From contig OX597828.1 of assembly GCA_951406725.2 (NCBI GenBank), forward strand, positions 50,158,001-50,222,000: a stretch of 64,000 nucleotides of DNA, written 5' to 3'. This document shows positions 9,485-60,706 of this stretch, piece by piece. Under the pieces are notes generated by a model. It ran no database searches, was not told where the DNA came from, and saw only the letters and a program-made list of their open reading frames with translations. This DNA is from Octopus vulgaris (taxonomy: Eukaryota). The number at the start of each line of letters is the position of its first letter. Positions within the stretch are counted from its first letter, which is position 1. The translations under genes were made by a program, and so were the position numbers.

Positions 9485-10542
9485 TTTAACAATAAAAAGA
9501 TATTATTAAAAAATGGCCGACATGTAAAGGGGGTTGTATGTGTGGTTATGTATATGTCCTTATGTGTGTGTGTGTGTTTATATACGTGTATTTATGTGTG
9601 TGTATGTGTATGAGTGGAAAGGAAAGAATTTATCTGAGAATGAGTTGGTGAAAGAGAAAATGTGAGCGTATATGCGAAAGAATCCGAATGTGTGTGTGTG
9701 TGTGTGTGTGTGTGTGTGTGTGTGTATGTATGAGTGTGTGTGCACGTGCTTGTGGGCGCTCGGGTTTTGAAAACCCCGGCGGCTGAGAATCCGATCACGA
9801 ATTTTGAATCTCATTTGTAAGCAAGAAGCTTGTAAACTAAAGTAAAGTAACGTTTTAAGAACATTTTTAGCTTTAAATTTTGTGCTATCATTTGATTCCA
9901 CCTTCGCCATTCCACCTCCTCCATTTTACCTGCGGTCTTGATATATCATAAAACGTACATAATTGCCCGTCTACGGCTCAATGTCACTCCTGCTCTTTAA
10001 TCTAACTCCTTTCAGCACAGAAAGAACAAATATCATCGTAATATATTCTAGCTACTAAAACAAAAAGCGCTTATATATATATATATATATATATATATAT
10101 ATATATAGACACACATATAGATACACATACATATATACATATATAAATATACACACACACATATATAAATATATATGCATATACACACACACACACACTC
10201 ACATACACACATATATATATATATATATATACATTTCAACAATTGAGGGTAAAATTAATTAATTATTAATTAATTTCACCAAGTGTTCAGTATGCAAAGG
10301 GACCATTTAAGGCGAATTCAAATTATTACAATATATAAAAGGGCTTAGTAAAATAAATTACTTTGCCGCATACTGAACTCATTAGAAATAGCATACTGAA
10401 CTCATTAGAAATAGCAGCTAAAAAACTTTTTTAAAAACCATTTCTAATACTTAAAGAAAATCTCTCTCGTATAATGTTTGGTCAACTCAACTCACGAAAG
10501 TTTGGGGGTAAAGACATAAAAAAATCAAATGCAAAGGTTATT

Positions 10543-10594
10543 TGAGAACGTACGTTTCAAGATTAGTCATCAAGACACTTCTATCATCAGCTCA
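10543..10594 (-). ncRNA. Type I HHR motif (left arm)
   Basis: Mirror of 11568-11619. Confidence 0.6.
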
Positions 10595-11567
10595 GAAACT
10601 CCATGGTTTGGATTTGAAAACACTGAAAGTGAGAGCAAACTTTTTCGGCCTCTCATCGCCTTCGAAGATCTGCTCGTAACTAACAGTGCCAACAAACCCA
10701 AACATGCAAGCGAAGAATTTCTGTCCTCCCCTTTCCACCAGCGTGGGTTAAAATCAACAAACACTCTGCTTATTTCGGTAAAATCCGAAGCATTAATTAG
10801 AGGGAGATTAATTATAATTTCAACAATTGAGGGTAAAATTAATTAATTATTAATTAATTTCACCAAGTGTTCAGTATGCAAAGGGACCATTTAAGGCGAA
10901 TTCAAATTATTACAATATATAAAAGGGCTTAGTAAAATAAATTACTTTGCCGCATACTGAACTCATTAGAAATAGCAGCTAAAAAACTTTTTTAAAAACC
11001 ATTTCTAATACTTAAAGAAAATCTCTCTCGTATAGTGTTTGGTCAACTCAACTCACGAAAGTTTGGGGGTAAAGACATAAAAAAAAAGTCTTTACCCCAA
11101 ACTTTCGTGAGTTGAGTTGACCAAACACTATACGAGAGAGATTTTCTTTAAGTATTAGAAATGGTTTTTAAAAAGTTTTTTAGCTGCTATTTCTAATGAG
11201 TTCAGTATGCGGCAAAGTAATTTATTTTACTAAGCCCTTTTATATATTGTAATAATTTGAATTCGCCTTAAATGGTCCCTTTGCATACTGAACACTTGGT
11301 GAAATTAATTAATAATTAATTAATTTTACCCTCAATTGTTGAAATTATAATTAATCTCCCTCTAATTAATACTTCGGATTTTACCGAAATAAGCAGAGTG
11401 TTTGTTGATTTTAACCCACGCTGGTGGAAAGGGGAGGACAGAAATTCTTCGCTTGCATGTTTGGGTTTGTTGGCACTGTTAGTTACGAGCAGATCTTCGA
11501 AGGCGATGAGAGGCCGAAAAAGTTTGCTCTCACTTTCAGTGTTTTCAAATCCAAACCATGGAGTTTC

Positions 11568-11619
11568 TGAGCTGATGATAGAAGTGTCTTGATGACTAAT
11601 CTTGAAACGTACGTTCTCA
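11568..11619 (+). ncRNA. Type I HHR motif (right arm)
   Basis: tgag-CTGATGA-tagaagtgtc..gactaatctt-GAAA-cgtacg-TT-ctca; palindromic stem III; non-canonical U-U at the base of stem II. Confidence 0.6.
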
Positions 11620-11808
11620 AATAACCTTTGCATTTGATTTTTTTATGTCTTTACCCCCAAACTTTCGTGAGTTGAGTTGACCAAACACTATATGAGAGAG
11701 ATTTTCTTTAAGTATTAGAAATGGTTTTTAAAAAATTTTTTTAGCTGCTATTTCTAATGAGTTCAGTATGCGGCAAAGTAATTTATTTTACTAAGCCCTT
11801 TATATATT

Positions 11809-12526
11809 ATATATATATACATATACGTATATGCATATATAAAATATATATGCATATATGAATATATATATATATATACATATATACATATATACATATA
11901 TGCATATATAAAATATATATGCATATATGAATATATATATATATATATATATATATATACATATATATACATACATATATAAATATATATATACATGTAT
12001 AAATATATATATGTACATAAATCTTTATATACATATATATATATATATATATAAATATATATACATATATATAAATATATATACATATATATAAATATAT
12101 ATACATATATATAAATATATATACATACATATATACATATATATATATATAAATATATATACATGCATATATACACATATATAAATATATATACATACAT
12201 ATATACATATATACATATATATAAATATACACACATACATATATACATATATATATATATAAATATATATACATATATACATATATATAGATATATACAT
12301 ACATACATATATATATATATATATGAATATATACATACATATATACATATATAAAATTATATGTATATGTATGTAAAGCATATATGTATATATTTATGTA
12401 TATATGCATGTATATATATATATATACACATATTACACATTATATGTGTGCGCATGTGGGTGTGTGTATGTGTGTATGTATGTGTGTTTGTGTGTTTTGT
12501 GTGTGTGTGTGTGTGTGTGTGTGTGT
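11809..12526. repeat. Degenerate (TA)n/(TACA)n/(TG)n tract
   Basis: Direct reading. Confidence 0.9.
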
Positions 12527-57699: not shown

Positions 57700-58300
57700 T
57701 CACTCCGACAAGTGCCTTGCCTCAAATATATTCTCCGGTCTTCGGTTACCAATTGTTTCCACTCTCACTTACTTTCCAGTTAATCCATTGGAGAGTAACC
57801 CCTCTTCTTTCAGCCTTATCTTACTCTCCAACTGGAACTTAGAAAAGTTGATGAGGGTTTGGCCAGAAAAGGGAGTGGCTTAATCCTTTCCTTTCCATCT
57901 TGTCCACCATACCCATGAAACAGAGGAAAGCTTTTCGGTCGAAGAGAAGCGATGGGCCTATAAATTCACCTGATAGTCAGATTCGTCTTACACGTGACAG
58001 CAACTACCCAACATAACTCCACAAACCAGCAATACTCGGATACCAGGCATGTGCATATTGAACCGTTTCTTCGATTAGCGTACATTTTATATAGAGCATG
58101 TTAATGCCATTAAATGCACATGTAGAGCTTGAATAAACCAGAAATACCTTGGTTGCACAGACAGGATACAGATTTCTGGAAATTATCCACATCTCTGGGC
58201 TGAAAGTTCTCCAAAATAAACTAATTTGTTGATCGTTTATTCAATGTCCCAATGCCTTGTTGTAACCCTTGTGTTCCGCTAACCCATATATTGTGGAATG
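57700..58300 (-). pseudogene. Old Tx1/L1 ORF2 3' relic
   Basis: EETVQYAH..LWSYVG*LLSRV..SGQTLINF aligns by eye to the 35762..36841 protein. Confidence 0.65.
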
Positions 58301-59599
58301 TTCCTATGTCATGCATTAACGCAGTTTTCGGCTCGCATTAATCTCAACCTTAAAGAGAAAGTATACAGTCTAATATATCCTTCCTCAACCGACAGAAATC
58401 CACAGTATTCCACGTACCAGTCAAGCTTCTTTTAGTTGCTCATTTAAGGGCAAACTGAAAAATCCCTCCGTTTTTTTTTTAATTAGAAGAACCTTGTTAC
58501 TTTTGTCTTACCCCCTTCGTTGCTGAAATCGTCATGCAAGGAGGGATAACATTTTTGGAACATACTTGTTCCGCATCGTTCTTTTCTTGTCTGAGGTTGG
58601 GGGTGGATGGACCATCGTATTTCAGAGTTACTTTTTGGCAGATATCATTGCCAAAATAATTTATTGTTTTTGCTAACTTTTTCTCTGTGTTTTGTTGTTT
58701 GTGAAGTTGCTATTTTTGTGTTGTATAAATGTCCGTGTTTTTGCGTGCAGAAGTGTAATTTTTCTTTTTGTTTGTTAGATGTGTTTTATAAACTAATGTT
58801 TGTTCGTATTATCAAATATTCGAACAGCTGTTCGAAGCTCTTCAAGACTTGTAAACCAGACAACGAAGACTTGTTATACAACCAAGCGGATATACACAAA
58901 CTAAAATAAAAAAAAGTTTAACGATAAATCATATTTTTTTCCAAAAGCAAAGTAAAAGTGGTGAATGTTCAACTGATTCAAAGCGTAATCCTCCCCCACC
59001 AAATGATGTTTTTTTCTTTTATTAAATACAAACGCGGTAATTAGAACACGAAATTCCTCAAAACATAACAAAAGCAACGACGACGACGATAATGACGATG
59101 TCGACAACAACAACGAGAATAATATTCATAATTCTTTCGAATTTTGGAACATGACTATTTTATGACTATTTTATCGGCCCTGAAAGGTTGAAAGGCAAAG
59201 TTGCCCTCTACAGGATTTGAACTCAAAACGTAAACGGCCGGAAGAAATGCCTCTTAGCTTTTTGTCCGATGCTCTGACAATTCTTCTTGTAATACTATAT
59301 TCGTTTATTTGTCACAGGGGCATCTGATGAAAGAGGGAATTCAAGGATAGTTTACAATTTGTGTGAGTATTTACATAAAAAAGAGGGACAGGAAGGAAGA
59401 GGAAGGGGAGATAAGACAGTATGTATAATATACAAAATTTATAAACACATGGATGAAACTAATGCCAGTCAAAGTACACAAAGGCCCAAAATCACTCTGA
59501 TCACCAAAGTCTTAAACCTACTCAACTGTTGTTCTATAAACTACAGGTATATATTTAGTGTAATTCTATTGACTCAGAACATTTTTACCAGTAGCCCAT

Positions 59600-59790
59600 A
59601 GTTTGATATATTTGCTGGGAAAGAACCTTTCACTTTTCTTTCGAAGTGGAAATTGAAAAAGGTTGACAGAAAAGAAAGGTATCCGTCTCCAATCCGTTCA
59701 CTCTCTTCCACTGCTCACTAACCAGCCCGCCATAGCGACTTGACAGAGCAACACTGGATTTGCCCAACATGCAACAACAGCTGTTCGACA
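59600..59790 (-). pseudogene. Old Tx1/L1 ORF2 3' relic
   Basis: VEQLL.HVG...GLETDTFL...FFNFHFERKV. Confidence 0.55.
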
Positions 59791-60378
59791 GATTTATAAT
59801 ATAGACACAAGGCCAGCAATTTTGTGGCCGATACCATCGACCTCAGTACATGATCGGTACTCTCTTCTATAGGTCCCAGGCAGGTTAAAAGAAAAAGTTG
59901 AGCCGGGCGAAGTTTGAAATCAAACTGTAAAAAAACAATAATTTATAACATTGGCACAAGTCCATACATTGGGAGGATGGAGGGTTAGTCGATTAAATAT
60001 TGACCTATGTAGGTAACTTTTACTTTATTTTATAGTCTTTCGATTGATGAAAGCTCAAGTTGGCATCGGTGAAATTTGATCTTAGGACGTTATGAGCCAG
60101 AACAAAACACTGTATATATATATATATATGTGAGGGCGCGTGTATGAGCGTACACGCATTGTGTACAGTTAGTTAGTTAGTTAGTTAAGTTAGTGTACAC
60201 TCATACACGCGCGCTCACACACGTTCACACAAACTTAAACACACTCACGCTTACATATACAACACTCTCACACACGCAGTTATGCACACGTATATATATG
60301 TATATATATATATATATATATATATATATATATATACATGTATATACAGATACATATATATATATATATATATATATA

Positions 60379-60706
60379 TTGGAAGGTTTGGAGATGATGT
60401 ACAGGTATTATATATTAGAAGAAATAAGGTAATCAGATCGGATGGTTCATATTTATAGATATTTATTTATATATTACATTTTTTACATATACATATCATA
60501 TCATTCAGATCATATCATTCGGATTATTAGCGCTTTCGCCCATTCCAGTTTGATTTGAAAACCCCACTCGAATGGGAGAAAGCGCTAATAATCCGAATGA
60601 TATGATCTGAATGATATGATATGTATATGTAAAAAATGTAATATATAAATAAATATCTATAAATATGAACCATCCGATCTGATTACCTCATTTCTTCTAA
60701 TATATA
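60379..60706. mobile_element. Fold-back palindrome with an HHR 3' half in each arm, inserted in (TA)n
   Basis: Arms ~60409-60545 and 60570-60706 (2 mismatches seen), 24-nt spacer; GAAA-gcgc-TA next to the centre. Confidence 0.8.

Follow-up and report, generated by a model that had tools for sequence, protein, structure and literature searches.

Each of the three palindromes (P1, P2 and P3) present in the window, that is, the whole 64,000-nt stretch of Octopus vulgaris DNA that was analysed, belongs to a dispersed family (F1, F2 and F3, respectively), and within each of these families the 3' end falls at one of two fixed sites, S or L, with L being S plus a tail of 36-120 nt. One S arm and one L arm are found in 88 of the 89 typed two-armed loci of F1-F3, with no S+S and no L+L locus. 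This quantitative rule, with its two fixed 3' ends per family, is the new part of the analysis; head-to-head inverted copies, one-sided tails and (TA)n targeting are published features of Penelope-like elements (PLEs), and the architecture is thus already known. With moderate confidence, the palindromes are read here as 5'-truncated, head-to-head insertions of PLE 3' ends in (TA)n, likely generated by twin priming from two fixed sites of one RNA.

The three palindromes of the window

All three palindromes (P1, 10233-11808; P2, 54841-55563; P3, 60379-60706) lie where the original prediction had placed them, and they are unrelated in sequence, sharing only 10-15-nt AT-rich words and one weak 33-nt match. 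Their arms are about 99% identical (4 mismatches in 713 aligned nt in P1, plus indels that include a 23-nt duplication in the left arm; 1 in 277 nt in P2; 2 in 126 nt in P3), and the predicted spacers of 11, 46 and 24 nt hold if the arms are read strictly. TA tracts adjoin 6/6 outer ends, against a window background in which (TA)4 occurs within the next 20 nt at only 4% of positions, and the hammerhead-sense strand reads outward in all three. In each palindrome it is the longer arm that bears the fixed tail. The short arm does stop at a TATA-like site, as had been noticed, but it does not merely merge with the flank: the stop is a fixed second initiation-like site, corresponding to the published PLE 'tail'. 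P2 folds strongly as DNA (z = -44.8 vs shuffles). Its empty site, a plain (TA)n tract, is found in a local duplicate of the window region (L108:1607-1790), and P3 is present in both copies of this duplication. The local duplication containing the window may represent an uncollapsed haplotype. No host gene is evident in the window, where the long frames, judged by eye, are simple repeats or transposon remnants.

Table 1. Positions of the palindrome arms, tails, hammerhead motifs and flanks in the window
Feature	Positions	Strand	Remarks
P1 left TA-rich flank	10072..10231	.	
P1 tailed (L) arm	10233..11087	-	spans some 1.5 units of F1 (~560-nt hammerhead tandem); its 3' end is 10233
P1 tail, S-to-L segment	10233..10337	-	101 nt in reference unit; only on outer end of L arm
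P1 type I hammerhead-like motif, Hydra-style	10543..10594	-	stem II base with U.U; GUU site; stem III palindromic
P1 tail-less (S) arm	11088..11808	+	ends at internal TATATA site
P1 hammerhead-like motif, mirror copy	11568..11619	+	
P1 right TA-rich flank	11801..12426	.	
P2 left (TA)n flank	54712..54841	.	part of target tract; uninterrupted in duplicate L108:1607-1790
P2 tailed (L) arm	54845..55285	-	3' pLTR of PLE family F2 (putative Hydra clade)
P2 tail	54845-54962	-	120 nt, on L arm
P2 canonical type I hammerhead, long stem II	54993..55079	-	strict descriptor
P2 46-nt 'spacer'	55240-55285	-	continuation of the L arm itself
P2 tail-less (S) arm	55286..55563	+	
P2 hammerhead, mirror copy	55445..55532	+	descriptor
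P2 right (TA)n flank	55564..55619	.	
P3 left (TA)n flank	60355..60378	.	
P3 tailed (L) arm	60379..60549	-	3' pLTR of PLE family F3 (Neptune/Nematis type); tail = outer 36 nt
P3 tail-less (S) arm	60549..60706	+	extends 17 nt further 5' than L arm
P3 degenerate hammerhead relic	60550..60594	+	first core non-canonical; stem II; GAAA; stem III palindromic; 3' strand of stem I
P3 right (TA)n flank	60701..60756	.	

The families behind the palindromes

The expectation of Penelope-like or retrozyme-type insertions that target (TA)n and are routinely inverted with outward polarity is borne out. A single system is not supported, as P1-P3 represent three lineages and at least two PLE clades. Autonomous partners with reverse transcriptase (RT) and GIY-YIG domains, which the original prediction called for, were found for two of the three families, F2 and F3, but not for F1. 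P1 is a member of a dispersed, non-coding, retrozyme-like tandem family of about 560 nt, with low-GC units of 557-560 nt, up to 10 per arm, and a type I hammerhead motif in each; the search for an F1 enzyme partner yielded only diverged non-coding relatives, and among 40 F1 loci there was no such partner and no match to P0001.

P2 is the 3' end (pLTR) of an intact PLE that is assigned to the Hydra clade from its protein motifs. The F2 unit of 4663 nt has an Asn-rich insert, a 1.75-kb 3' UTR and a single ORF (952 aa in L104) that encodes an RT plus a GIY-YIG at the C terminus, with many stop-free copies and with RWK, DKT, a CxCX5C linker, CxxC and CxH, without CCHH, when read against the Hydra-clade definition. 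Pfam matches are weak (RVT_1, E 0.006; GIY-YIG, E 0.004) and restricted to sub-regions, the whole protein having no match, and a PDB sequence search with P0001 gave none either. Partial tandems form pLTRs with a hammerhead at L112, L114, L115 and L118. Motif-defined F2 ends have (TA)4 within 16 nt at 77/81, and two of the four that do not are internal variants.

P3 is likewise the 3' end of a Neptune/Nematis-type PLE, a clade assignment made from motifs rather than from a tree. The frames of the F3 partner L223 encode an RT with DKG, a CX4CxxC linker and a GIY-YIG with CCHH (Pfam GIY-YIG, E 3e-6; RVT_1, E 2e-4), and sister copies have 775-aa open frames.

The hammerhead marks the pLTR sense strand only and does not set the architecture, which had been thought to be ribozyme-defined: in P3 the motif is a mere relic (core UUGAUUUGA), the descriptor for a canonical pLTR hammerhead is negative for L222, L223 and the window's P3, and in the youngest F3 sister subfamily (L225-L229) GCAA replaces GAAA. 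In P2, each of the two arms gives a match to a strict type I descriptor (0 matches in 40 shuffled windows), and the score against Rfam Hammerhead_1 is 18.4 bits (E 0.044), under the gathering score. P1 matches neither the strict type I descriptor nor Rfam; it has both core motifs, with a U.U mismatch that opens stem II and a GUU site, as in published Hydra-clade hammerheads, and diverged F1 relatives (61-67%) keep the core, with compensatory changes. None of the P1-P3 hammerhead folds is more stable than shuffles (F1, z 0.34). The best 150 of 209 Rfam matches in the whole window are almost all microsatellite-driven miRNA, with no hammerhead among the matches listed, and 5' ends in F2 and F3 show no clustering where the hammerhead would cleave. 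Fold-back of P3 at hammerhead stem II was considered and dropped, given that the point at which copies end lies upstream, between the core and stem I.

Two fixed 3' ends and the route of integration

Among top-scoring copies only, which are young and long, S+L was found in 28/29 two-armed loci of F1 (40 loci mapped), 27/27 of F2 (34 loci mapped) and 16/16, then 2/2 further, of F3; in a prospective test on ORF-bearing F2 loci, the 15 that were typed gave 14 exact S+L pairs and one with a near-S end. The tail measures 36 nt in F3, 101 nt in F1 and 120 nt in F2. Single-arm copies carry either end (4 S and 7 L in F1, 4 S and 3 L in F2, many of each in F3), and TA-like microhomology at the 3' ends of insertions, as had been proposed, is present. 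In F2, the S arm reaches further by >70 nt in 6/27 two-armed loci (by 236-3751 nt) and the L arm in 7/27, while 14/27 are nearly symmetric, several being centred on a natural hairpin, although the query favoured 5 of these 14 and also the window; the offsets are bimodal. Two extreme cases are L096, with an S arm of 3.9 kb and an L arm of 267 nt, and L121, with an S arm of >4 kb and a tail-only L arm of 52 nt. The excess of either arm over the other can amount to kilobases, and neither arm thus holds the template for the other. The 5' ends of the two arms coincide above chance (within 2 nt in 4/21, permutation p 0.0004), and paired arms have 36 minor and 4 private variants in common, compared with 2 differences whose alleles both occur elsewhere. 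No RNA run is among the sequencing runs listed as matches. The idea of MITE-like palindromes moving as whole units was rejected on account of centres and arm lengths that vary between loci.

These S+L data suggest that twin priming provides a better fit than the originally proposed snap-back. In such a route, the GIY-YIG endonuclease of the PLE would cut both strands of the TA tract, and the two freed ends would prime reverse transcription of one RNA at the fixed TATA-like sites S and L. Both cDNAs would run toward the RNA 5' end, often halting at the same base (the RNA end or a common block), their 3' tips would anneal or be end-joined via microhomology or short templated patches, and each could then template second-strand synthesis of the other; failure of one primer would leave an S-only or L-only copy, and a Hydra-type enzyme would act in trans to move the non-coding F1 arrays. 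For another PLE in vitro, both strands are cut and extended, two RT start sites bound the tail and a dimer is predicted (PMC11167929). In that system, the start site did not differ between strands and priming occurred without homology, both of which count against twin priming here, as do the strand displacement needed with two polymerases on one RNA and the negative search for an F1 enzyme partner. The near-symmetric F2 loci, the natural-hairpin centres and the restriction of private variants common to both arms to symmetric loci also speak against it, being what snap-back predicts. In multi-unit F1 arrays, the outer units are alike in register in L144, L153 and L158, but in L157 and L159 the arms differ unit by unit, a misfit with one RNA primed in one unit unless later turnover occurred.

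Snap-back, in which an L-primed cDNA doubles back, is copied outward again and is then resolved, through endonuclease (EN) cleavage or target annealing, at S, the internal TATA site, asymmetric and S-only copies being left by later deletion from an unstable centre, seems rather unlikely. It would explain S+L at once, as well as the 0-1-nt offsets with short inserted loops at L038, L044, L056 and L060, the natural-hairpin centres at L032-L037, the P1 and P2 spacers, which continue the tailed arm, and the 4 private variants common to both arms, all in symmetric loci and 0 in asymmetric ones (p 0.15). Self-priming for PLE junction palindromes and EN-mediated resolution for the tail have been proposed (PMC3846280 and PMC8557442, respectively). 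As a general route, however, it is not supported, considering that the tail-less arm extends further 5' in the 6/27 F2 loci than the tailed arm needed as template, with the S arm reaching further in P3, L042, L046, L057 and L091, and that tail-less single-arm copies are common, each S-only copy requiring clean loss of an entire L arm. Deletions of up to 4.5 kb would be required in the very young intact-ORF loci L096, L119 and L121, and asymmetric loci are not older (private arm differences 6/4038 nt vs 17/5940 nt, p 0.20). Moreover, separate loci have in common the exact base at which their short arms end (L102 and L121; L094 and L130), the multi-unit F1 arms of L156 and L158 are not mirror copies, and RT does initiate in vitro at start sites of the S type (PMC11167929).

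A mixed route is less probable still: twin priming would give the asymmetric and single-arm copies, and some symmetric palindromes, P1 and P2 included, would come from snap-back or from later homogenisation by hairpin repair. The bimodal offsets and a private variant common to both P2 arms, absent from four sequencing runs, favour it, but the single S+L rule covers both symmetric and asymmetric classes, and a common RNA end explains the coinciding 5' ends without a second route, as seen in F3, where S-only, L-only and two-armed copies stop within one common 15-nt zone, 145-160 nt above S; the F2 zone is about 280-290 nt above S. Two independent insertions of two RNAs into one TA tract, or a later rearrangement, are very improbable; TA tracts do gather independent insertions (L079, L178, L222), yet the arms abut without intervening TA, always as S+L and with donor variants in common, and the rule, with a chance of 2^-88 if both ends were used equally, largely refutes this explanation. 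An assembly or read fold-back artefact has a negligible probability. In its favour, chimeras are known to take the form of long near-perfect palindromes, the P2 junction of the window itself is not among the joints listed in the contigs of four sequencing runs, and the window is part of the possibly uncollapsed duplication. Against it, the flanks are not mirrored, the arms differ by substitutions and indels, all three families show a fixed S/L asymmetry, an S end at (TA)n and an inversion joint of the L042 kind are present in contigs of runs X3 and X15, and P3 is in both duplicate copies.

Twin priming could, tentatively, be the normal integration route of EN+ PLEs, alone making the inverted arms and the tail, with retrozyme arrays integrated likewise by PLE enzymes; the chances of this wider claim are put slightly below even. 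Many young copies of three families are present in the octopus genome, the enzymes of two being intact or nearly so, and the (TA)n target is simple; the one-S-one-L rule together with the two-way arm asymmetry gives a sharp, testable prediction for second-strand synthesis. The F1 arrays would be genomic evidence of retrozyme-like RNA inserted by PLE machinery, and F1-F3 seed a microsatellite-rich genome with near-perfect palindromes of up to about 6 kb.

Comparison with known systems

In LINE-1 twin priming, a single RNA is primed from both strands of the target and microhomology links the two cDNAs, which gives an inversion. The route proposed here shares both features, but in LINE-1 there is no overlap between the segments and the second site is variable, whereas in F1-F3 both sites are fixed, 36-120 nt apart, so that the arms overlap and form a palindrome.

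F1 resembles the animal non-LTR retrozymes, as described in the available parts of PMC7229834 and 10.64898/2026.07.22.740005, in being a low-GC tandem without coding capacity in which every unit has a single type I hammerhead motif, from monomers to 10-mers. With about 560 nt, its unit exceeds the 220-400-nt examples given there, and its mostly inverted arrays with PLE-type S/L ends in (TA)n are not among the retrozyme descriptions in those parts. F2 agrees with Hydra-clade PLEs in protein motifs, (TA)n target and canonical hammerhead, while its 4.66-kb unit exceeds the clade's general <3 kb, a size that is a tendency and not a strict criterion (PMC8557442). The supplement of the same paper includes Hydra-1_Obim and Penelope-13_HM, each with an attached inverted copy; compared by eye, F2 and Hydra-1_Obim are different families. 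F3 shares with the Neptune/Nematis clade the DKG, the linker (CX2-5CxxC in the clade), the GIY-YIG with CCHH, the pLTR-ORF-pLTR layout and a microsatellite target, but its hammerhead is degenerate.

Complex insertions of EN+ PLEs comprise a partial tandem, an inverted 5'-truncated copy and a one-sided tail, according to PMC8557442 (Fig. 2 legend), PMC3846280 and PMC2377424, and the origin of the inverted repeats and tails has been called undefined (PMC8557442, PMC11167929). The architecture of F1-F3 is itself ordinary for PLEs, matching published EN+ elements in the head-to-head inverted 5'-truncated copy, junction palindromes, one-end tail, pLTR hammerhead and microsatellite targets. The published explanations are self-priming or EN resolution, in contrast to the twin priming proposed here; published tails measure 30-40 nt, against 101, 120 and 36 nt in F1, F2 and F3, and the tail is described as 'optional', whereas in F1-F3 it is carried by exactly one arm at 88/89 loci.

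Three palindromes from three families

The three palindromes (P1, P2 and P3) lie at the positions and with the strictly read spacers of the original prediction, and their arms are indeed near-perfect (98-99.6% identity). A TA tract adjoins each outer end, in each palindrome the hammerhead-sense strand runs outward, and the three are mutually without real sequence similarity. Both P2 arms carry a type I hammerhead that passes a strict descriptor (0 matches in 40 shuffled windows) and matches Rfam Hammerhead_1 weakly; P1 has core motifs that pass neither the strict type I descriptor nor Rfam, and P3 has only a relic. 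Relatives of P1 with only 61-67% identity retain both cores, with the first stem II pair swapped and the stem III loop still self-complementary, and the U.U mismatch and GUU site of the P1 motif are the pattern listed for Hydra-clade Penelope-like elements (PLEs) in the supplement of PMC8557442.

First-look searches of the 2.8-Gb genome returned 1405, 1115 and 1850 candidates for families F1, F2 and F3 (of P1, P2 and P3, respectively), and 40 of each were scored. The F1 unit is non-coding, 557-560 nt long and found in arrays of up to 10 units; judged by sequence it appears retrozyme-like, and no enzyme partner was found among 40 F1 loci. In two arrays (L153, L156) variant patterns repeat every 2-4 units, which suggests higher-order turnover or copying of multimeric or circular RNA. 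Older F1 relatives (61-78% identity) occur at L222, L049, L052 and L100, the first as a short inverted pair, tailed and tail-less, with TA tracts on either side.

P2 is the 3' terminus of F2, which is autonomous: at locus L104 a 952-aa ORF is followed by a 1.75-kb 3' UTR with the P2 sequence at its end, some copies carry an upstream terminal repeat (pLTR), and many frames have no stops. The F2 protein motifs (RWK, DKT, CxCX5C and CxxC/CxH, with CCHH absent) are those by which section 11 of PMC8557442 defines the Hydra clade. P3 is the pLTR of F3, whose 5.3-kb pLTR-ORF-pLTR element at L223 has DKG, a CX4CxxC linker and a GIY-YIG domain (Pfam E 3e-6) in a broken frame and would be of Neptune/Nematis type; the putative clade names of F2 and F3 are based on motifs, not on a tree. 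In a younger F3 sister subfamily, with identity of about 95% over the ORF and about 80% over the 3' region, frames of 775 aa are open and the GAAA hammerhead core has disappeared. The link to PLEs was correct, but the single system envisaged gives way to three different families and, since the P3 hammerhead is a relic, the architecture is not ribozyme-defined.

Features of the window, G000:C15:50158001-50222000, and of related loci (window positions unless a locus is named)
Feature	Position	Description
P1	10233-11808	spacer 11 nt; F1; tail 101 nt
P2	54841-55563	spacer 46 nt; F2; tail 120 nt
P3	60379-60706	spacer 24 nt; F3; tail 36 nt
Base in P2	55174 and right-arm mirror	common to both arms, absent from other loci and four sequencing runs; explicable by a first-strand error carried over to the other arm, by a rare donor or by inter-arm conversion
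F2 3'-end relative	37887-38148	single arm, diverged (68%), running into TA tract
Fourth family, hammerhead-like	1379-1608 (-); 30880-31114 (-); flanks of L078, L183, L229	minimal motif (variant first core, 4-bp stem II, GAAAC-GUC); single-armed, adjoining TA tracts; probably the 3' end of a further PLE
SINE-like repeat	4704-5213; 15635-16340	163-185 nt, tandem arrays; named by eye
Transposon remnants	21218-21649; 27767-28222; 35501-36841; 43771-45015	named by eye
Duplicated segment	54453-61367	copy 11 kb downstream, about 98-99% identity
A-X-B-A'-B' layout	40367-44352; 54453-64000; L108:1-8587	98-99.6%; either segmental duplication or uncollapsed haplotype
F3 upstream stretch	L223:1225-2908; L229	about 1.6 kb, coding-like, upstream of 775-aa RT-EN frame; possibly ORF1 or N-terminal extension in another frame
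Hydra-type ORF	L104:3660-6518	long Asn-rich inserts separating RT and endonuclease, resembling those described for rotifer PLEs in PMC3846280
F2-arm palindromes	L091 (G000:C23:45992957-45997921); L099	near-perfect, about 5 and 6 kb; surviving with spacers of just 67 nt and about 520 nt

Paired 3' ends and the (TA)n target

Every family shows a pair of fixed 3' ends, named S and L, the latter being S plus a tail. A TATA-like word follows all six sites within the elements, so that short TA homology is available there; some S ends extend 3-13 nt into the tail. All two-armed loci are head-to-head, and they combine one S and one L arm in 28/29 cases for F1 (40 loci mapped; in the exception, L149, the second arm ends elsewhere), in 27/27 for F2 (34/37 loci mapped, with one S arm stopping 10 nt early) and in 16/16 typed cases for F3 (51 loci, 4 unmapped), as well as in 2/2 long ones. 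For F3, S+S was detectable only in the second and third sets, because the first query included the tail. As a prediction test, far ends were fetched for 16 ORF-bearing F2 loci with the short inverted arm typed beforehand: the complementary end was present at 14, another locus stopped 19 nt before S and one had no match. With the 15 loci typed in this test included, S+L accounts for 88/89 over the three families, and neither S+S nor L+L occurs among these 89 two-armed loci. Single-arm copies may have either end (F1, 4 S and 7 L; F2, 4 S and 3 L; F3, many), and these shares are not genome-wide rates, since the surveyed loci are top-scoring copies.

(TA)4 lies within 16 nt of 200/219 motif-defined ends, against a 4% baseline, and several of the misses listed are variant-bearing internal copies or ends located a few nucleotides inside the tail. 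The local duplicate has P3 and lacks P2, the flanks of which are joined there by an uninterrupted TA tract, an empty site; the P2 (TA)n tract therefore existed without the insert, and this holds for a paralogue and for an uncollapsed haplotype alike. In the A-X-B-A'-B' layout, the 10-kb X segment is missing from the second copy as well, and a different insertion, of 1.1 kb, is present there. Contigs from sequencing runs X3 and X15 contain an S|(TA)n end together with an inversion joint like that of locus L042; the window's own P2 junction was not found in them.

Origin of the two arms

Arm lengths, one-donor variants, end coupling and junctions together lead us to favour, by a modest degree, twin priming on one RNA, a mechanism known from L1. 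Both cut target strands would prime reverse transcription at the S and L sites of the same RNA; we infer each step, from target cutting and priming to strand displacement and the joining of the cDNAs. Both arms of a locus derive from one donor, for in 9971 nt of overlapping F2 arm sequence they have 36 minor and 4 private variants in common and disagree at 23 private positions and at just 2 where both alleles are known elsewhere. Arm 5' ends are coupled, 4/21 falling within 2 nt (permutation p 0.0004) with the window and five query-favoured loci removed. Microhomology of at least 2 nt is present at 23/54 junctions and short insertions, often templated, at 22/54. Since S-only, L-only and two-armed F3 copies alike mostly stop 145-160 nt above S (toward the element 5' side), in the stretch that separates stem I of the hammerhead relic from its core, this stop zone points to an RNA end or a block that the copies have in common, not to a fold; three F2 ends lie 120-123 nt above S, with the hammerhead stem I edge at 120. 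Against twin priming count several symmetric loci centred on a natural hairpin, the 4/4 shared private variants in symmetric loci (p 0.15) and the mixed register of F1 arrays.

The snap-back (fold-back) of the original prediction, with resolution at S, is a less probable source of the arms. In its simple form the first strand gives the tailed arm, which is necessarily the longer one, yet the S arm runs 236-3751 nt further in 6/27 F2 loci (the L arm 515-3920 nt further in 7/27, the offset being at most 70 nt in 14/27), and at L096 and L121 S arms of kilobase length, without tail template, stand beside L arms of 267 and 52 nt. A later central deletion could account for such asymmetry, but asymmetric loci are no older than symmetric ones (p 0.20), copies with the S end alone are frequent, and at different loci the short arms end on identical bases; these observations count against pure snap-back. 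A mixed route is less probable still.

Relation to known elements

Palindrome architecture is already known for PLEs: PMC8557442, PMC3846280 and PMC2377424 describe inverted 5'-truncated copies, often with the tail at one end, and a (TA)n bias, with self-priming proposed in PMC3846280, and the Hydra supplement of PMC8557442 includes a cephalopod family and one family to which an inverted copy is attached. PMC7229834 and 10.64898/2026.07.22.740005 treat animal retrozymes and the proposal that these arose from PLEs, and an octopus genome repeat annotation (PMC13282606) mentions neither hammerheads nor palindromes in its main text. Neither obligatory S+L pairing nor twin priming was found for PLEs in the literature covered, with subscription titles and earlier Penelope work mostly outside its scope. 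This analysis adds the strict two-end rule, its signature also on a retrozyme-like array (F1), the evidence against pure snap-back and the empty site of P2. In vitro work on an anole Poseidon element (PMC11167929) differs from our proposal in that neither strand was preferred and the primer needed no homology, and agrees with it in that both strands are cut and extended and two start sites bound the tail.
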